Positions 3,428-59,001 of a stretch of DNA of 61,610 bases are shown piece by piece. Every line of letters starts with the position of its first letter. Within the stretch, counting starts at the first letter, position 1. Made by a program: the position numbers and the translations under genes. The stretch is from Candidatus Woesearchaeota archaeon (GTDB lineage: Archaea; Nanobdellota; Nanobdellia; SCGC-AAA011-G17; JACPNG01). Where the stretch lies: the NCBI GenBank assembly GCA_018303485.1, contig JAGVYC010000008.1, forward strand, positions 1 to 61,610. Reading direction: 5' to 3'. The notes below the pieces were generated by a model. That model was not told where the DNA came from and searched no databases. It saw only the letters and a list, made by a program, of their open reading frames with translations.

Positions 3428-4069
3428 AATAATTCTAATATCTGCTGCTGCAACATCATTCTCCAAAACAAACAATGGATTTACATCAATTTCTTTAACG
3501 TCTTTGTTTTTTTCAATAATCTTTGCTAGTTTTAATATTACATCTACAACATTATTCAAGTTTATTTTTTTATTCCTATAACCTTTTAATGCATCATAAA
3601 TCTTTGTTTCAGCTAGCATTTCAAAAGCGTCTTTTTTTGTTATTGGGCAGATTCTCATGCTTATATCCTTTAATATTTCAGTATAAATTCCACCAGAACC
3701 AGCAATAACAACGTCTCCAAAAGTATCATCCCTTTTAGCTCCAAGAATTAAAGCTATATCAGATAATACCATTTTCTGGATTAATATTCCTTGAATCTTC
3801 GCTTTTTTATTGTATTTCTTGGCATTCTTTACAGCTAAATCATATCTTTTTAAAAGCTCTTCCTTGGAGTTTATGTTTGTAAAAATAACATTGGCGTCAG
3901 TTTTATGAGAAATGTCTTTTGATATCAGCTTCAACACCAAGGGATATCCAATTTTCTCCACATATCCAGCAGCCTCTTCTTTGCTTTTTACAAGTTTCCC
4001 TTTAGGTATTTTTATTTTATATTTCTTAAATAATTCAACACCCTTTTTGTAATCAAGCAGCTTTTGCAT
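3419..4069 (-). CDS. stand-alone ATP-grasp domain protein resembling the beta part of ADP-forming acetyl-CoA synthetase
   Basis: YPLVLKLISKDISHKTD, GILIQKMV and EIDVNPLFV are typical of the ATP-grasp_5/AcdB-like fold. The 3' end overlaps the convergent DHH gene by 9 nt. Confidence 0.5.
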   Translation of the reverse strand: MQKLLDYKKGVELFKKYKIKIPKGKLVKSKEEAAGYVEKIGYPLVLKLISKDISHKTDANVIFTNINSKEELLKRYDLAVKNAKKYNKKAKIQGILIQKMVLSDIALILGAKRDDTFGDVVIAGSGGIYTEILKDISMRICPITKKDAFEMLAETKIYDALKGYRNKKINLNNVVDVILKLAKIIEKNKDVKEIDVNPLFVLENDVAAADIRIISD

Positions 4070-4245: not shown

Positions 4246-6168
4246 ATGGTTGACATTAAAAAAATAATCCTGCTGCTCTTGTTAGTGCCTGCAGTTTATG
4301 CCAATATGGACAATTATAATAACTATAATTCCATTCTGATAGATCTCAATGTTTCTTCAACTGCAGACTCAGATGTAACCGGCAGCAATCCGAGGCTTGA
4401 TTTGGTAAACATATCAGTGTTGTTTTTTCCAAGGGATAATTATATGCAAAAAATTATTTCCGAAAAATTCTACTCTGATCCAAGCACTAATGCCAAAAAA
4501 AGCGAAGATTCAATAGCTTTTATATGGAAAAACCCAGAAATTAAAAAATATTCTTTTTCAACAGTTTATGGCATTAATACATTTAACAGCATTATCAAAG
4601 TAAACAATAAGATAAAATTTCCTTTAACCAACTTGGAAAAAGAATTAGCAAAGTATACTGTTCCAACAGAATATATAGATGTAAATGATGCAATTAAAAG
4701 GCAGGCAGCTGAAATTGCAGAAGGAGAAGACGATTACTATAAGGTTGTTTTTAAGCTAGCTGACTGGGTCAATAAAAATATAAACTATTCATTAAACACA
4801 TTGACAGAAGAGGTTGTAGAGAAATCAAGCTGGGTTCTTGAAAATAAATATGGCGTTTGCGATGAACTTACTAATCTATTCATATCAATGGCTAGGTCTC
4901 TTGGAATACCAGCAAGGTTCGTAACAGGAACAGTTTATACAAACCTCGGATATGCATTCCAGAATCATGGCTGGGCTGAGGTTTACTTTCCTGGCTATGG
5001 CTGGATTCCATTTGATGTGACATTTGCAGAGTACGGCTGGCTGGATCCTAGTCATGTAAAACTTTCTGATTCCTTTGATTCAGGAAGCCCATCAATAAGC
5101 TATATGTGGAAGTCTTATAATGTTAATCTCAATACGAATGATTTGTTAATAGAGGCAAAAGTGGCAAATGCAACAGGATCAGCAGAAAAAATTGTTGATT
5201 TCAGGGTAAAGCCTATTTTTGAAGAAGTTAATTTTGGCAGCCTTGTCCCTGTTGAATTAAATGTCAAAAATTTAAAGCCATATTATGTAGCAATGACTTT
5301 TAAAATAAAGAAAGCGCCAGGCATTTATAATGGCACAACTTCAAAAAGCATTGTTTTGGCGCCGAATGAAGAAAAGCCTCTTTATTGGATCTTTTACGCC
5401 CCGGTAATGGAAGACAAGAATTATATCTACATCTCTGAAATTGAGGTCATAGATAATTTCAATTACGCCGAGGAAAGTAAGGTAAAATACGCCTCAATAT
5501 ACGATTCTTATGACTTGAATTCTGTTACGAGCTTGATAAATTCATTGGCGCCAGAGCAGAAAAAGGAATTGCTTTCTGATGTTTCTATAACATGCAATGC
5601 ATCAAAGGAATACTTCTACTCTGATGAAATGGCTTTGGTTTACTGCAAGATTGAAAGCACAGGCAATAAAATCTTAAAAGACATCAACATTTGTTTGTTG
5701 GCAGAATGCAAGAAAATAGACCTTTCAATAGCAGAATCAAGAAACATTATATTTTCATACACATTTAAAACCAGCGGCAATTATATGGCTATTGCTAAGC
5801 ATGAAGACCTTGAAAAATACTCAAAATTCTACATCAAAGTTATAAAAAAACCCATTGTAATATTAAAAATACAGAATATAAGCGAAATCAATTACAATGA
5901 AATAAAAAACATGACATTGGAGATTGTAACAAATGCAAAGATAAACAATTTGACATTGAAGCTAAGCAAACATGATGCAGCTTCGATTGATGAACTGGAA
6001 GGCCGTTATGTACTAACCCTTCAGCTAAAAGGAAAAAACCTTCTTAAAGAAATGCCAATAGATTTAAAATACAAGGACGAAGTTGGAAAATATTATTTCT
6101 TAAGCAATAGCATTGACATTAAAGTAATAAACATCCCATGGTACAGAAGATTTTTTATGCTAGAGTGA
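4246..6168 (+). CDS. secreted transglutaminase-like cysteine protease domain protein
   Basis: Cys-His-Asp core: GVCDELTNLF, NHGWAEVYFPGYGWIPFDVT. The hydrophobic signal follows the ATG at 4246; the ORF-track start at 4195 is a TTG. Confidence 0.75.
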   Translation: MVDIKKIILLLLLVPAVYANMDNYNNYNSILIDLNVSSTADSDVTGSNPRLDLVNISVLFFPRDNYMQKIISEKFYSDPSTNAKKSEDSIAFIWKNPEIKKYSFSTVYGINTFNSIIKVNNKIKFPLTNLEKELAKYTVPTEYIDVNDAIKRQAAEIAEGEDDYYKVVFKLADWVNKNINYSLNTLTEEVVEKSSWVLENKYGVCDELTNLFISMARSLGIPARFVTGTVYTNLGYAFQNHGWAEVYFPGYGWIPFDVTFAEYGWLDPSHVKLSDSFDSGSPSISYMWKSYNVNLNTNDLLIEAKVANATGSAEKIVDFRVKPIFEEVNFGSLVPVELNVKNLKPYYVAMTFKIKKAPGIYNGTTSKSIVLAPNEEKPLYWIFYAPVMEDKNYIYISEIEVIDNFNYAEESKVKYASIYDSYDLNSVTSLINSLAPEQKKELLSDVSITCNASKEYFYSDEMALVYCKIESTGNKILKDINICLLAECKKIDLSIAESRNIIFSYTFKTSGNYMAIAKHEDLEKYSKFYIKVIKKPIVILKIQNISEINYNEIKNMTLEIVTNAKINNLTLKLSKHDAASIDELEGRYVLTLQLKGKNLLKEMPIDLKYKDEVGKYYFLSNSIDIKVINIPWYRRFFMLE

Positions 6169-6345: not shown

Positions 6346-6621
6346 TTAAGCCTCTTTAACCAGCTTGATGCTAGTCATTAATGCCCATACCCATGCAACA
6401 ATTATTGTTACAAAGCCAACAAATACCATCATGAGTGGATAGCTAATCAAGTACAATACCAACTGCATTACGCCTATTCTTGTTTCTCCACCAATAACGC
6501 TGCCTAACCCTGGAATGAATAAATTAATAATTAAGGCAACTATTGAAAGATTTTTATTTTTATTAGCACTGCTTGATTTTGCAGCAACAACTGGTTTTTT
6601 AGCAACAACCTTTTTAGCCAT
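6346..6621 (-). CDS. small membrane protein (basic N-terminus, two TM helices)
   Basis: MAKKVVAKKPVVAAKSS followed by IVALIINLFIPGLGSVIGG and LVLYLISYPLMMVFVGFVTIIVAWVWAL. Confidence 0.5.
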   Translation of the reverse strand: MAKKVVAKKPVVAAKSSSANKNKNLSIVALIINLFIPGLGSVIGGETRIGVMQLVLYLISYPLMMVFVGFVTIIVAWVWALMTSIKLVKEA

Positions 6622-6695
6622 TTTTAATCGCCTCCTTTGTTATAATTAATATGCTAATTCCAATCTATTTAATAGTTTATATAGTTTTCTTTGCA

Positions 6696-7682
6696 TCATT
6701 TAACGGCCTTTGCAGCCCTTAATTTGCTTACAATCCTTTGAAAAGTCCTAAATGACTTGTTTTCACCTGCCTTGTACAGTTCATAAATGTCTTTTAAGTT
6801 TTTTTCAGGATTCTCTTTTAATAATCTAAGAACTTTCTTCTCTTCACCCTCTAAGATCTTCTCATCATCAAAATCATCAATCTTTTTTGTTGCTATTTCA
6901 GCATGCTTTAACAATATCTTCCTTGAGGATTCTTCTTCTGCTATGTTTCCTGATTCTTCCAGCAAAAACAATCCTTTCCTTATGTCTTTTAATTCAAATG
7001 TTTTCTTAGCAATTAATTCAAAAGCATCATTCTCAAAAACATTTTTAACAAACGCATAATCTTTTCTCATCCTTAATATTTCTTTAACCTCATCAGGATT
7101 GTAAGGCTTAAATTCAAGCTTATCTAAATTTAACCTGGACATAATTCTTGGCTCTATTCTTCTAACGGAGCCGGCATCATTTGTAACCATTAATATGCAT
7201 TTCCTGTAAATCTTTTCTAATAAGGCATATAGAATGCTGTAATCCTGCATCTTGTCAAATTCATCAAATATGATGACAGCAGATTTCTTGTTTATGATGT
7301 TTGTTATCTCATCAATAAGGTCTTTTGTATTCTTGTCAGCTATCCATTTATATCCAATCTGGTTGCATATGTCTAATGTTATCTTGTAAGATGTTTCATC
7401 AATCCAGCAGTTTATGTATATCACAAGAATATCATCAGTCTGATCTTGCAGTTCATTAAGGACATGCTTGCAGCAAACAGTCTTGCCAATGCCCTGAGCT
7501 CCATATATCAGTAAATTCTTGCCGTCTCTCCTGTTAAACAATGGCTTTATGCAGTTTGCAATGTAAAACTGCTGGTTTTCCCTGAAAGGAATGAGCTTTG
7601 GCCGATATCCATAGTCTAAATGCTCCGGGTTCAAGAACAAGGATTCATTGCCTCCAAGAATATTGTCAAATAATCCCCCCAT
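6696..7682 (-). CDS. cdc6: Orc1/Cdc6 replication initiator (AAA+ plus winged helix)
   Basis: N-terminal YRPKLIPFRENQ, Walker A GAQGIGKT, Walker B VIIFDEFD, and a C-terminal wHTH-like region. Confidence 0.85.
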   Translation of the reverse strand: MGGLFDNILGGNESLFLNPEHLDYGYRPKLIPFRENQQFYIANCIKPLFNRRDGKNLLIYGAQGIGKTVCCKHVLNELQDQTDDILVIYINCWIDETSYKITLDICNQIGYKWIADKNTKDLIDEITNIINKKSAVIIFDEFDKMQDYSILYALLEKIYRKCILMVTNDAGSVRRIEPRIMSRLNLDKLEFKPYNPDEVKEILRMRKDYAFVKNVFENDAFELIAKKTFELKDIRKGLFLLEESGNIAEEESSRKILLKHAEIATKKIDDFDDEKILEGEEKKVLRLLKENPEKNLKDIYELYKAGENKSFRTFQRIVSKLRAAKAVK

Positions 7683-22603: not shown

Positions 22604-23227
22604 ATGAAAAAGCATGATGTTTATGAATTTATAATCTCTATATCAAAAGAAATCTCAAAAAAAAGAGAAGGCGCTTTGTTTGTAATAGCAAATACTAAGA
22701 GATTAAATAACAAATACAGCCTGCTATTTCCACAGATACAGAAAAAATTTTATATATCAGAAAAAGGCTCAGAAAAAATAATTGAAAAATTAGCAACATT
22801 AGACGGCGCTGTTTTAATCTCAGATTCTGGCATGCTTCTTGCTTACGGTGCTAAATTAAAAAGATCTATTCCGGTAAGGGGTCATGGCACAAAACATGCA
22901 GCAGCTGCAGGCACAACAAGTAGCATAAAAGAGGCAACTGCAATTCTAGTTAGCGAGGAAGACAGCTTAATCAAGATTTTTCAGCACGGCAAAATAATAC
23001 TTGAAATGGACTCTTACGAAAACCCAAAATCTCTTGAAGACAAAATAATAGCTTTCATTTCAGAGGGTGATACAGCATTATTGACAGCAGCAGGGGTTTC
23101 AACAGTTTTTCTTGGAAGCGCAGCTATAGCACCCTTGGCAATTGTTGGCGGTACTTATTTAGCTATAAGAACAGCTGGTGGCATAATAAAAAGGAACTGG
23201 GAATCATTGGTTAAGAAAAAGCATTAG
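22604..23227 (+). CDS. diadenylate cyclase (DAC/DisA_N) domain protein with a C-terminal hydrophobic segment
   Basis: REGALFVI, LDGAVLISDSG, GHGTKHAAAAG (variant of GTRHRAA) and ILVSEEDSLI match the DAC motifs in order. The C-terminus is ALLTAAGVSTVFLGSAAIAPLAIVGGTYLAI. Confidence 0.7.
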   Translation: MKKHDVYEFIISISKEISKKREGALFVIANTKRLNNKYSLLFPQIQKKFYISEKGSEKIIEKLATLDGAVLISDSGMLLAYGAKLKRSIPVRGHGTKHAAAAGTTSSIKEATAILVSEEDSLIKIFQHGKIILEMDSYENPKSLEDKIIAFISEGDTALLTAAGVSTVFLGSAAIAPLAIVGGTYLAIRTAGGIIKRNWESLVKKKH

Positions 23228-23535
23228 CATTGTTTCTTTTTCCAAAATGGTATTCTTGTATACTTCTTGCAATTAAAACAGTAGGTTAGCACAATTTTTT
23301 TGTTTATTCTTGTCTGGCAGTTAACACCATGCTTTAAGTAGCTATAGCAGTGTTTGCAGTATTTTCTTTTGAATTTTCTAGGCATCCTTAGCTTTATTTT
23401 CATTGCTATCTTTCTTGCTAGTTCAACATACCTGTTTGCCAGCTTTGGATTTTTCTTAAATATTTCATCAGCTTCACTAAAAAGAATTTCTATCCTTTCA
23501 TTTGCTATCCTTGTTTGTTTTGCTTTGTTTTCCAT
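23224..23535 (-). CDS. rnp4: RNase P protein component 4 (Rpp21/Rpr2)
   Basis: ANERIEILFSEA ... LANRYVELARKI followed by the zinc ribbon CKHCYSYL ... CFNCKKY. Confidence 0.8.
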   Translation of the reverse strand: MENKAKQTRIANERIEILFSEADEIFKKNPKLANRYVELARKIAMKIKLRMPRKFKRKYCKHCYSYLKHGVNCQTRINKKIVLTYCFNCKKYTRIPFWKKKQC

Positions 23536-23587
23536 AAAGATAAAGAATTAATGTGATTTTAAAAACCTTTGTCTGGAAAAATAAAGT

Positions 23588-23698
23588 GGACAGCTAACCA
23601 ATCTTCCCACATAAAATGCAGTACCAATTGGAACGTGTACCTGTTTAACTGCTGTGTTCGAGATGGGAACAGGTGGAACCAGGTAGCTATGGCCGTCC
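23588..23698 (-). rRNA. rrf: 5S ribosomal RNA (unlinked to 16S/23S)
   Basis: The reverse strand reads GGACGGCCATAGCTACCTGGTTCCACCTGTTCCCATCTCGAACACAGCAGTTAAACAGGTACACGTTCCAATTGGTACTG...GGGAAGATTGGTTAGCTGTCC. It shows the 5S hallmarks CCATAGC, CCCATCTCGAAC, AGTTAAAC and GTACTG, with helix I GGACGGC/GCTGTCC and a T-run after the 3' end. Confidence 0.85.
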
Positions 23699-23793
23699 TA
23701 TTGAAATTCATTAAGATTCTATTTATAAGCCTTTTGTTGAAGTCAGTTGTTCACGAAGTACAAAAGTGGGAACCGAATCATCTAAACTGGCTT

Positions 23794-27441: not shown

Positions 27442-27780
27442 TTAAAGCAGTTTTAAGCCCTTTGTAATCTTGTCTACCTTTTCATCATCATCAGGCCCAA
27501 CAGCCATGCATGTAACAGTTGGTTTTTTAAAAACAGTCAAGCCAGCATCAGTTATCAATGCTGTTACTAATCCAACATCTTCAGCCATCTTCTTGAATTT
27601 AATCAGTTCTCTTTTATCCTCAACTTTTAATGCGATCTTCTTCATGCCTTCATTATGCCATTCTTCAACAATATTTTTATCAGATTTTAAAACAGATTCA
27701 ACAGAGGCATGAGCACACTGAATTGATAGTTTTCCCTTTTCCATCTTTAAGTCCTTTCTAACTAAAATGCATTGTTTCAC
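27442..27780 (-). CDS. pth2: peptidyl-tRNA hydrolase, archaeal type (Pth2)
   Basis: KQCILVRKDLKM.KGKLSIQCAHASV and ITDAGLTVFKKPTVTCMAVGP. Confidence 0.85.
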   Translation of the reverse strand: MKQCILVRKDLKMEKGKLSIQCAHASVESVLKSDKNIVEEWHNEGMKKIALKVEDKRELIKFKKMAEDVGLVTALITDAGLTVFKKPTVTCMAVGPDDDEKVDKITKGLKLL

Positions 27781-27834
27781 TAGATTAAGCTATTGATAAC
27801 TTTTATAAATAGTTATTGTTATCAAAAAACTACC

Positions 27835-27939
27835 GGGGCTGTGGTGCAACTTGGCTAACATACGAGGTTTGGGACCTTGTGATCTCGGAGAAACTTAGTT
27901 CTTGCTATGTTTCGAGAAATTCAAATCCGGGCAGCCCCA
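27835..27939 (+). tRNA. tRNA-Pro (anticodon TGG) with a 31-nt non-canonical intron between positions 53 and 54
   Basis: Acceptor GGGGCTG/CAGCCCC with A73. Anticodon stem CGAGG/CCTTG, loop TTTGGGA (TGG at 27870-27872). T stem 5' CTCGG (27884-88) is separated from TTCAAAT-CCGGG (27920-31) by 27889-27919. A full BHB motif sits on both junctions. Confidence 0.75.
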
Positions 27940-27985
27940 TTTACAATTTAGAAATATTTAAAAACACTGTTTTTCAATCAATGAA

Positions 27986-28195
27986 ATGGCAACGAAAAGA
28001 ATGTCTTTTACCGGTGGTTTTGGAGCAAGATATGGGGCTAAAATAAGGCAGAGATTAATCAATGCCACAAAGAAGCAAAAGACTTGGCAAAAATGCCCTT
28101 ATTGCACAAAATTAAGAGTAAAAAGAATCTCATACGGCATCTGGAAATGTCGTGCATGCAATATTAAATTTGCATCAAGAGCGTACGAATCATGA
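27986..28195 (+). CDS. rpl37ae: 50S ribosomal protein L37Ae (eL43)
   Basis: TGGFGARYGAKIR and the zinc ribbon CPYC...CRAC. Confidence 0.9.
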   Translation: MATKRMSFTGGFGARYGAKIRQRLINATKKQKTWQKCPYCTKLRVKRISYGIWKCRACNIKFASRAYES

Positions 28196-55490: not shown

Positions 55491-56039
55491 ATGGAACAAA
55501 AAAGTTACAAATTGGAAATTGTAAATGAGCTTTTGAATAACAGCAACCATGTAAGGGGACTGGCAAAAGAACTAAACATAAATCACATGAATATATCAAG
55601 GAAAATAAAAGAGCTTGCAAAAGAAAATGTTGTGGATTACAAGGAAGAAGGTAAAAATAAGACATATTTTTTAAAGAAAAGTATAGAAGCAAGAAACTAT
55701 GCATTTCTAGCTGAAAACTATAAGTTAAACAGGTTTTTAGGAAGCTACCCTAATTTAAGGAGGGTAATTGAGAATATTCAAAAAGACAGGCGAATCAGAC
55801 TGGCAATTTTGTATGGATCTTATGCTAAGGGCATTGCTAAACCTAATAGCGATATCGATATTTATATCGACACAGACAACAAAATGATAAAGGAAGACCT
55901 TAGTTTATTTGATACAAAATTAAGCATAAAGACAGGTAGTTACAACAAATCCAACTTGTTGATTAAAGAAATTGAAAAGAACCATATTATACTAAAAGGT
56001 GTTGAACAATATTATGAAAAGAACAAATTTTTTGATTAA
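55491..56039 (+). CDS. wHTH + minimal nucleotidyltransferase (MNT) domain protein, antitoxin-type
   Basis: N-terminal HTH (VRGLAKELNINHMNISRKIKEL) and the NTase motif LYGSYAKG...SDIDIYID. Confidence 0.7.
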   Translation: MEQKSYKLEIVNELLNNSNHVRGLAKELNINHMNISRKIKELAKENVVDYKEEGKNKTYFLKKSIEARNYAFLAENYKLNRFLGSYPNLRRVIENIQKDRRIRLAILYGSYAKGIAKPNSDIDIYIDTDNKMIKEDLSLFDTKLSIKTGSYNKSNLLIKEIEKNHIILKGVEQYYEKNKFFD

Positions 56040-56490
56040 GTTAAATAAAAAAGGTATAATTGATATTGTAAAACCCAGCGACGAAATATCTCAGTCATAT
56101 ATTATGAAGTCTGAAAGCAATCTTATTTCTGCAAAAATTCTGTTGGCAAATGAGAGACTAGAAGAATCTGTTGGCCTTGCGTATTATAGTATGTATCACT
56201 CCCTAACAGCACTTTTATTTAAAATAGGTATAAAATCAGAAAATCATAATGCTTCAATAATCTTGCTAAAAGAATTAGTTGGTTTGTCTAATAATGATAT
56301 TCTCAATGCCAAAAAGGAAAGAGTGGACAAACAATACTATGTTAATTTTATGATAACAAAAGAGGCAGTTAATGACACTATAAAACAAGCTGAAAGATTC
56401 AATAGTCATATAGTGGATTTTATTTCAAAAATTAATAATGAAGATATTAATACTTATAGGAAAAAGTTTATCAAGTTAATTAAAGAGTAA
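56014..56490 (+). CDS. HEPN domain protein, toxin-type partner of MNT
   Basis: Helical ~158-aa protein overlapping the MNT 3' end. AYYSMYHSLTALL and KKERVDKQY fit HEPN helices. The pairing with MNT is the main evidence. Confidence 0.6.
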   Translation: MKRTNFLIKLNKKGIIDIVKPSDEISQSYIMKSESNLISAKILLANERLEESVGLAYYSMYHSLTALLFKIGIKSENHNASIILLKELVGLSNNDILNAKKERVDKQYYVNFMITKEAVNDTIKQAERFNSHIVDFISKINNEDINTYRKKFIKLIKE

Positions 56491-57260: not shown

Positions 57261-59001
57261 ATGGATTATGGCTTATTGGTAGATTGTTATGAATCTTTAA
57301 ATAAAACAACAAAAAGGCTTGAAAAAACCTACATAATCTCAAAATTGCTAAAAAAAATACAAAAAGAAGACATTCAACAGGTAATCTATCTTCTTCAAGG
57401 CCTTGTCTTTCCTCCTTGGGACGAGCATAAACTAGGCATGAGTTCTTTGCTCATAGTCAAAGCCCTATCATCTATAACTGGAAATTCAAAAGAAAAAGTC
57501 GAAAAGCTATGGAAAAAAGAAGGAGACCTAGGCTTGGTTTCAGAGCTGTTAATCAAAGACATAAAGCAAAAAACATTAATGCAGAAAAAACTTACAACGA
57601 GCTTGATTTTTAACAACTTAAGAAAGCTCGCAGAATTAACAGGGAAAGGGGCAATAAACAGAAAAATCCAGCTTCTTTCAGAATTGCTTGCAAACTCCAG
57701 GCCATTGGAATCGAAGTATATAGTAAAAACAGTCCTGAATAATTTAAGGATAGGCATAGCAGAAGGCATTATAAGGGATGCAATTGTCTGGGCATTTTTC
57801 GAGCATGAAATAAAATTCAGCTATAATGAGAAAGAAAACATATTTGATGTTAATAGGGAAGATTACAACAAGTACATTGATGCAATTCAGTCAGCATATG
57901 ATGTTACAAATGATTACGGTGAAATAGCTTTGATAGCATTGGCAAGAGGATTGCAGGGATTAAAAGAGACCCAGATAGACATAAGCAAGCCAATAAATCC
58001 AATGCTGGCCATAAGGGTAGAATCAGTAGATGATGCGCTAGAAGCATTGGGCACTCCTGTTTTATGCGATTTAAAATTAGATGGCTTCAGGTTATTGATT
58101 CATAGAAAAGAAAACAAGTTCTGGTTTTACACTAGAAGATTGGAAAATGTTACAAAACAGTTTGCAGAGTTAATGCCAATACTGAATGATTGCATCAAAG
58201 GCTCTTCTTATATCATAGATTCAGAAGTTGTTGGTTATGATCCAAAAACAAAAAAATATCTTCCTTTTCAGGCAATCTCTCAAAGGATAAAAAGAAAGTA
58301 TAATATAGAAAAAATAGCAAAGGAGGTTCCAGTTGAGATAAATATATTTGATATAGTGTATTACAATGGCAAGCCTTTGCTTGAGCATCCGCAAATGGAA
58401 AGGCGCGAGCTGCTTGAAAAGATAGTTAAAGAAATTCCTAATAAAAAAAAAAATAATAAGTTCAGATCCAAGAGAAATACAAGGGTTCTTTGATAATGCA
58501 ATACGCCTTGGCCTTGAAGGAGTCATGGTAAAAAATATAAATACCAAGTATGTATCTGGAAGAAAAGTAGGCGGCTGGATTAAGCTAAAGGCAATTCCTG
58601 AAACATTAGACCTGGTTATAACAGAGTCTGATTATGGCGAAGGAAAAAGAGCAAAGACCTTGAGCAGTTATACAGTTTCATGTTCATCCAAGAACAAGCT
58701 GCTTGTTGTTGGCAAGGTCTCAACAGGTGTAAAAGAAAAAGAAGGGGAATTTACCTATTCAGAAATTACAAAATTATTAAAGCCGTTAATTATGATGGAG
58801 GAGGGAAAGCATGTCATCTTGAAGCCATGGCTTGTAATAGAAGTTGCTTATGAAGAAATACAAAGATCTCCAAAATACGAATCAGGTTTTGCATTAAGAT
58901 TTCCAAAAGTATTAAGAATCCGCTTGGATAAGGGTGTAAAAGACATTTCTGCATTGGCAGATATAGAAAGAATCTACAAAAAACAGAAAGGAAAAAGATA
59001 A
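57261..59001 (+). CDS. lig: ATP-dependent DNA ligase, reading frame broken at an A11 tract (58443-58453)
   Basis: ORF 57261-58493 carries the DNA-binding and adenylation domains (CDLKLDGFRLLIH). ORF 58525-59001, in the +1 frame, carries LEGVMVK, GGWIKLK and the OB domain. Reading IISSDPREIQGFFDNAIRLGLEGVMVK in the second frame bridges the gap. Confidence 0.8.

Follow-up and report, generated by a model that had tools for sequence, protein, structure and literature searches.

We identified a 105-nt tRNA-Pro(UGG) gene at positions 27835-27939 (+) of a 61,610-nt stretch of DNA from a Candidatus Woesearchaeota archaeon (hereafter the window), interrupted by a 31-nt bulge-helix-bulge (BHB) intron between tRNA nucleotides 53 and 54. 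Judging from its sequence and its relatives, it is very probably a functional gene whose intron is removed via the BHB pathway in a ~34% GC DPANN archaeon of the Woesearchaeota/Nanoarchaeota-type groundwater radiation. The whole gene reads GGGGCTGTGGTGCAACTTGGCTAACATACGAGGTTTGGGACCTTGTGATCTCGG (exon), AGAAACTTAGTTCTTGCTATGTTTCGAGAAA (intron) and TTCAAATCCGGGCAGCCCCA (exon), with the following parts.

27835-27888 (+): 5′ exon, tRNA nucleotides 1-53, holding the acceptor 5′ strand, D arm, anticodon arm, variable loop and T-stem 5′ strand (ARAGORN cloverleaf, Rfam alignment)
27870-27872 (+): anticodon TGG (Pro), followed by G37 and A38 (ARAGORN, sequence)
27884-27888 (+): T-stem 5′ strand CTCGG (sequence)
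27889-27919 (+): BHB intron, 31 nt, between nucleotides 53 and 54 (sequence, spliced fold)
27920-27939 (+): 3′ exon, nucleotides 54-73 (sequence, ARAGORN, Rfam)
27920-27931 (+): T loop and T-stem 3′ strand, TTCAAATCCGGG (sequence)

The identity elements of archaeal tRNA-Pro are the anticodon UGG, G37, G1-C72 and A73. Excising 27889-27919 left a 74-mer that ARAGORN assigned to tRNA-Pro(tgg), with UGG in a 7-nt loop, G37, G1-C72, A73 and a T loop of UUCAAAU all present. In the spliced cloverleaf the acceptor stem has 7 bp, the anticodon stem 5 bp closing the loop UUUGGGA (G37), the variable loop 4 nt and the T stem 5 bp, with A as the discriminator; the D stem has only three pairs, including a G-U, and also a C-A mismatch. 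The 3′ exon is made up of the T loop TTCAAAT, the T-stem 3′ strand CCGGG, the acceptor 3′ strand CAGCCCC and the discriminator A, followed by TTT, with CCA absent from the gene. When the 211-nt neighbourhood was searched with the intron kept in place, the Rfam tRNA model RF00005 matched exactly 27835-27939 at 31.3 bits (E 4.7e-5), above its gathering cut-off of 29 bits; the alignment ran through both exons in full and placed a 37-nt local insert in the T loop. Intron-less orthologues scored 57.0 bits (L031) and 55.4 bits (L032), roughly the level that would be expected for the spliced product of the window gene.

Around the exon-intron junctions, the precursor can form a BHB motif composed of the following elements.

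27880-27882 (+): 5′ strand of helix h1, TGA, pairing with TCA at 27921-27923 over 3 bp (sequence)
27883-27886 (+): 5′ strand of the central helix, TCTC, the last variable-loop nucleotide plus T-stem nucleotides 49-51, pairing with 27914-27917
27887-27889 (+): 5′ bulge GGA, predicted cut after 27888 (BHB rule)
27890-27913 (+): helix h2, 5 bp, GAAAC/GTTTC (27890-27894 with 27909-27913), enclosing a 14-nt region
27914-27917 (+): 3′ strand of the central helix, GAGA, intronic, four Watson-Crick pairs (sequence, covariation)
27918-27920 (+): 3′ bulge AAT, predicted cut after 27919 (BHB rule)

The intron thus runs, in order, as a single A, a hairpin (GAAAC..GTTTC with inner TAGT/GCTA, the latter a further 4-bp hairpin of 27896-27899 with 27904-27907), GAGA and AA. 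Its fold has the 4-bp central helix, the two opposite 3-nt bulges and the flanking helices of at least 2 bp that define a BHB, and a 4-bp helix with two 3-nt bulges is the substrate of the splicing endonuclease EndA (PMC4090602). In silico, cuts placed behind the second bulge nucleotide on either side, followed by joining of the exon ends, yielded a canonical cloverleaf tRNA with CTCGG joined to TTCAAAT, the product that had been predicted from the sequence beforehand. A 4-bp central helix together with an h2 of at least 3 bp in the right register arose in 118 of 200,000 shuffles of the intron (6e-4). By nearest-neighbour folding, the minimum free energy fold of the precursor retained the T stem, not the BHB, and explicit evaluation gave -28.5 kcal/mol for the BHB conformer versus -28.1 kcal/mol for the T-stem conformer, making the two about iso-energetic. 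The central helix of the window BHB is entirely Watson-Crick, unlike the T stem, which contains a U50-G64 wobble.

Other kinds of insert were also considered. Rfam returned no match of the region to a group I or group II intron family even at E up to 10, and a self-splicing intron of either group was rejected, as a ribozyme core takes hundreds of nucleotides and the insert has only 31. A C/D-box guide inside the intron was likewise dismissed, the 31 nt being devoid of C or D boxes. Searched by blastn-short against 110 loci and the window itself, the intron gave only chance matches of at most 14 nt; with no similar copy in either, nothing here points to a transposing intron family.

The motif recurs in relatives. 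A one-genome-per-species search with the pattern GGTTTGGGACC, 10-11 nt, GG, 12-42 nt, TTCAAATCC found this gene structure again in 15 archaeal genome records, labelled Candidatus Woesearchaeota, Nanoarchaeota/Nanoarchaeia and, in one case, Aenigmatarchaeota. Bacterial matches to this DNA pattern were set aside as intact tRNA-Pro genes followed by a chance TTCAAATCC, with the exception of loci L009, L019 and L020. The homologue set comprised 21 intron-bearing 53/54 loci, three of them added from metagenomes, and 20 of these were distinct in the aligned junction region. Their introns range from 17 to 75 nt and are unrelated in sequence, yet they share a common design. The first intron nucleotide is A, hence a 5′ bulge of GGA in 21 of 21 homologues, and is followed by a hairpin, by a 4-nt complement of the last variable-loop nucleotide and T-stem 49-51, and by two final nucleotides that are mostly AA and in a few cases AT, AC or AG, so that the 3′ bulge is mostly AAT and occasionally ATT, ACT or AGT.

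Covariation was computed on an ungapped junction alignment of the 20 distinct sequences. In total, 90.4% of cells were paired versus 65.7% in shuffles, and the covariation score was 0.715 versus 0.236 in shuffles, none of 500 of which reached 0.715, with slid registers reaching at most 0.145. The central helix was paired in 98.8% of cells, with double-sided changes in all four pairs, which alternate between C-G and U-A or between C-G and A-U (TCTC/GAGA, TCCC/GGGA, CCCC/GGGG, CCCA/TGGG, CTCA/TGAG and TCCA/TGGA), while h2 was 92% paired with compensatory changes in five of five pairs; over the whole motif, 10 of 12 pairs showed double-sided changes. Covariation across relatives therefore gives strong comparative support to the BHB being a selected structure. 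The drawing in the earlier note stood up in that all its helices and bulges exist and the central helix and h2 covary; its 3-bp h1, on the other hand, is conserved over only two inner pairs (G-C and A/G-U), the third being specific to the window and a few others. A few relatives carry relaxed motifs, namely a single in-register base pair in h2 (L004), an A-A mismatch at the base of h2 (L011) and a 3-bp central helix (L002), which fits the reported association of L3-loop DPANN EndAs with increased disruption of tRNA genes (PMC5829648).

The genomic context places the gene at a conserved archaeal locus, in which the following neighbours were annotated.

23224-23535 (−): Rpp21/Rpr2, RNase P protein subunit, archaeal marker
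27442-27780 (−): Pth2, archaeal marker
27802-27810 (+): TTTATAAAT, archaeal TATA-box-like element starting 33 nt upstream of tRNA position 1 (consensus and conservation)
27816-28046 (+): mechanical 76-aa open reading frame with a TTG start over the tRNA gene, judged spurious (ORF list)
27986-28195: ribosomal protein L37Ae (Pfam PF01780)

The gene order in the window is tRNA-Pro, L37Ae, prefoldin beta, UPF0147 and SepF, and the last three are archaeal markers, as are FtsZ, Elp3 and GatD/GatE elsewhere in the window. L37Ae lay directly downstream of the tRNA gene in 13 of the 15 genome loci, with prefoldin beta, UPF0147 and SepF behind it to the limit of each locus, and the metagenome loci had the same order. 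Protein identities among the syntenic loci were only about 40-60%, and by gene order the syntenic tRNA-Pro genes are orthologues in deeply diverged lineages. Of the 52 aligned loci, 27 have a TTTA[TA]A[AT] box beginning 31-36 nt before tRNA position 1, most frequently at −33, and TTTATAAAT is regarded as a putative promoter by consensus match and conservation only. The conserved locus and the TTTATAAAT box together argue that the window gene is an orthologous working copy and not a decayed duplicate. The window has ~34% GC, and its sequence was found only in groundwater and soil metagenomes. ARAGORN on the spliced form, Rfam, synteny and covariation over 20 introns all converge on the tRNA-Pro(UGG) with a 31-nt 53/54 BHB intron that the earlier note had proposed, and every coordinate and string it gave was exact on re-reading the sequence.

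Several other features of the window were observed in passing. A stand-alone 5S rRNA gene at 23585-23700 (−; 71.4 bits) adjoins the Rpp21/Rpr2 gene at 23224-23535 (−). An ATP-dependent DNA ligase is seemingly encoded by two open reading frames, 57261-58493 and 58525-59001 (+), 31 nt apart, one with the N-terminal and adenylation domains and the other with the C-terminal OB domain, which a split gene, a frameshift or stop, or an error in the sequence might explain. At 55491-56490 (+), a nucleotidyltransferase (Polbeta/NTP_transf_2, with an N-terminal HTH) overlaps a HEPN-domain protein, an arrangement typical of what may be a HEPN/MNT toxin-antitoxin-like module. When the window was scanned for further hidden tRNA genes by T-loop and acceptor complementarity, the tRNA-Pro gene and chance matches were all that came up.

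As anticipated in the earlier note, standard finders miss the gene. ARAGORN models anticodon-loop introns only, and it failed to find the gene in either the region or the whole window, with and without its intron options (-i and -i0,100). A whole-window Rfam scan also passed over the gene at both gathering and E-value thresholds, only the 211-nt search reporting it, and Rfam at the gathering threshold missed six of six single-intron homologues tested. For its BHB models, tRNAscan-SE 2.0 drew on training data from Crenarchaeota, Euryarchaeota and Thaumarchaeota, with DPANN not among them (PMC8450103). If the gene were omitted, the genome would appear to be without what may be its sole tRNA for reading CCA and CCG-type proline codons.

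Four rival explanations were weighed against a spliced and functional gene. That the region is a decayed or disabled tRNA-Pro copy, carrying a disruptive 31-nt insertion while an intact tRNA-Pro(UGG) elsewhere does the work, derives some appeal from the absence of an intron in the closest relative, L031, and in 15 further syntenic loci, and from intron-less tRNA-Pro sequences in the same metagenomes. We consider it improbable, however, given the conserved orthologous position and TATA box, the integrity of all stems, and an insert that forms an exact BHB in the sole register restoring a perfect T arm; 20 diverged lineages preserve its design by way of compensatory changes, unlike the outcome of a random insertion, and the intron-less contigs, with two to six differences and other flanks, belong to other organisms. 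Still less probable is that the insert is retained, giving a mature tRNA with an expanded T-loop or an extra arm, even though the nearest-neighbour fold keeps the T stem and places the insert in a side hairpin. The architecture of the T loop includes the 54-58 reverse Hoogsteen pair and contacts with the D loop, and an insertion at 53/54 would destroy it. Moreover, the conserved complement to nucleotides 48-51 and the two 3-nt bulges would be without rationale unless the BHB is recognised, and an intron varying from 17 to 75 nt with free sequence is as expected of excised RNA.

A protein-coding region with an incidental tRNA-like fold appears very improbable. The ORF list does contain a reading frame of such size, the 76-aa ORF at 27816-28046, but it begins with TTG and runs over the start of the L37Ae gene in another frame. 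In orthologous loci the 31 nt, not a multiple of three, are absent or replaced by unrelated intron sequence, so the ORF is interrupted or frame-shifted in every relative, and the tRNA signal is strong and conserved; the verdict that the ORF is spurious, overlapping as it does the tRNA and, out of frame, L37Ae, and not being kept in orthologous loci, is thereby upheld. An insertion created by misassembly or chimerism, for which the metagenome source and the co-occurrence of related intron-less alleles might speak, is equally implausible. A separate, independent Logan contig (run X4) covers 27777-28106 with no differences, and of the words sampled from the 2.5 kb around the gene, 96-99% are present in runs X1-X3, which together indicate that the insert is real DNA and not an assembly artefact; the same gene structure is also found in 20 other assemblies. 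Runs X1-X4 additionally contain intron-less tRNA-Pro(UGG) contigs joining 27888 to 27920 and thereby skipping 31 nt. Because these contigs carry two to six mismatches and different flanks, they represent other community members, not an allele, so that intron-bearing and intron-less lineages coexist in one community.

For the spliced tRNA gene, which remains our preferred reading, we propose the following processing route. Transcription would proceed from the TATA box about 33 nt upstream. In the precursor, TCTC (the last variable-loop nucleotide plus 49-51) may pair with the intron GAGA rather than with the T-stem 3′ strand, yielding a strict 3-4-3 hBHBh′ that the sequence permits and whose pairing covaries across relatives. 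Following the known pathway, EndA would cut after the second nucleotide of each bulge, that is, after 27888 and after 27919, and an RtcB-type ligase would join ...CTCGG to TTCAAAT..., whereupon the T arm could form; the predicted spliced junction is ...GATCTCGG joined to TTCAAATCC.... RNase P (Rpp21 at 23224-23535), 3′ trimming and CCA addition would then produce a 74+3-nt tRNA. The intron represents one state of a polymorphic character among orthologous genes. Queries of 1.3 kb and 10 kb found no RNA runs holding the organism.

Pfam scans of 40 ORFs detected neither EndA nor RtcB in the 61-kb window, as expected of 61 kb out of a roughly 1-Mb genome. An M. jannaschii EndA probe, checked against PDB 1A79 (E 8e-111), gave no tblastn match to EndA in the window or in any fetched locus. 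Given the strictness of the motif, a broad-specificity enzyme is not demanded by the motif alone.

Since the pattern search is biased to intron carriers, we fetched loci via SepF from metagenome contigs and inspected them upstream of L37Ae, which gave an unbiased sample of about 37 distinct syntenic loci long enough to judge. The syntenic tRNA-Pro(UGG) was intron-less in 16 distinct loci, carried introns elsewhere only (3/4, D arm, 37/38 and, once, 59/60) in 15, and contained a 53/54 intron in six (L063, L064, L079, L083, L095 and L098/L101), mostly alongside other introns; D-arm introns were placed by a spliced-alignment classifier only approximately, between 19/20 and 24/25. The closest relative of the window, L031, with identities of 76% in SepF and 78% in L37Ae, is intron-less. 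On a rough neighbour-joining tree built from four neighbouring proteins (397 aa, without support values), intron states were scattered and sister loci differed, as in the window (53/54) versus L031 (none), L064 (37/38 and 53/54) versus L065 (3/4 and D arm), and L024 (3/4 and 53/54) versus L099 (3/4). This pattern suggests that introns may have been repeatedly gained and/or lost at a few recurrent sites, the 397-aa tree being too weak to tell repeated gain from repeated loss. A more far-reaching proposal, which we offer tentatively and think rather unlikely, is that BHB introns are still turning over at a hotspot, the single-copy syntenic tRNA-Pro(UGG) that precedes L37Ae in Woesearchaeota-type DPANN, where they would appear and vanish at five sites (3/4, D arm, 37/38, 53/54 and 59/60) even between sister lineages.

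Among the other inserts seen at these genes, a conserved class of 14-33 nt follows acceptor-stem nucleotide 3 (..ATGGG/ACT....GCAT../GCYG..) in L005, L008, L011/L095, L024, L052, L053, L065 and L083, where it often accompanies introns in the D arm and at 53/54, so that a single gene can have as many as three. Genes with this acceptor-stem intron have their TATA box about 45-48 nt upstream of GGG, versus about 33 nt otherwise. Locus L085 (about 20-160) holds a syntenic tRNA-Pro(UGG) with a 35-nt T-loop insert at about 59/60, not 53/54. The bacterial exceptions to the pattern search come from the metagenome-assembled genomes 'bacterium SD8033_maxbin2.bin.2_sub' and 'Ca. Zhuqueibacter pondensis', in which tandem tRNA-Pro(UGG) copies lie upstream of an Arg-His-Glu tRNA cluster (L009:25-300; L020, −, about 3440-3970; L019, −, 5890-5950 and 6658-6721). 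These copies carry 13-16-nt palindromic hairpin inserts of the CTACGNNNGTAG type at about 29/30 and 53/54, sometimes doubled, for which no BHB can be drawn, and L019 also has an uninterrupted tRNA-Pro at 6429-6504; the hairpin-bearing copies could be pseudogenes, the product of a small palindromic element, or something else.

The earlier note was right that the intron site is non-canonical, although 53/54 is not a new position, being among the known archaeal non-canonical intron sites (PMC4090602) and occupied in the DPANN archaeon ARMAN-2, whose pre-tRNA-Pro(GGG) carries strict hBHBh′ introns at 53/54 and 59/60 (PMC3239211). The ARMAN-2 gene shares with the window gene a DPANN host, a proline tRNA, the exact 53/54 site and the strict hBHBh′ (PMC3239211), and differs in its isoacceptor (GGG versus UGG here) and in its two adjacent T-loop introns versus the single intron here. 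The EndA of ARMAN-2 is of the three-unit epsilon2 form, whereas an alpha4 type with an L3 loop has been suggested for other DPANN (PMC5829648). DPANN genomes, one of them from Woesearchaeota, have been analysed for disrupted tRNA genes and L3-loop EndA variants; having run tRNA gene predictions on genomes of Woesearchaeota and Pacearchaeota, Kaneta et al. remarked that incomplete tRNA sets hint at disrupted genes that escaped detection (PMC5829648).

The canonical 37/38 intron has the same 3-4-3 BHB geometry, cut after the second bulge nucleotide by the same enzymes (PMC4090602), but the helix here draws on T-stem and variable-loop nucleotides, not anticodon-loop nucleotides, and BHB formation therefore competes with a tRNA stem. 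According to the review PMC4090602 (citing Sugahara 2008 and Fujishima 2010), non-canonical introns of Thermoproteales and other Crenarchaeota occupy the same sites 3/4, D arm, 53/54 and 59/60, and the review describes, as we observe here, up to three introns per gene and a patchy spread among close relatives that implies gain and loss. Crenarchaeota differ in belonging to TACK and having an (alpha-beta)2 EndA with a Crenarchaea-specific loop, and in possessing families of sequence-similar introns that indicate transposition, whereas the window intron is without a similar copy. The tRNA-Pro(UGG) of Pyrobaculum islandicum (Sugahara 2007, as cited in that review) is the same isoacceptor with a non-canonical T-arm intron; as described there, its host is a crenarchaeon, and its three introns lie at 25/26, 37/38 and 56/57, the T-arm site thus being 56/57 versus 53/54 here.

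The window gene is a sound annotation catch at an unusual but documented position, and it leaves the known picture of archaeal tRNA splicing unchanged; of the side results, the most interesting is the comparative view of introns turning over at a single syntenic gene. With its 20 covarying homologues, it would provide a well-supported added case of Woesearchaeota-type DPANN processing non-canonical introns. If they do so, their EndA must accept a BHB within the T arm, in keeping with published work that ties EndA variants of DPANN to disrupted tRNA genes (PMC5829648). Should the scattered introns stem from independent insertions and not from losses, this gene would offer a natural setting in which to study BHB-intron movement, for which reverse EndA/RtcB splicing followed by reverse transcription and recombination is a candidate mechanism, and such turnover, if true, would bear on whether T-arm introns shield tRNA genes from integrating elements.
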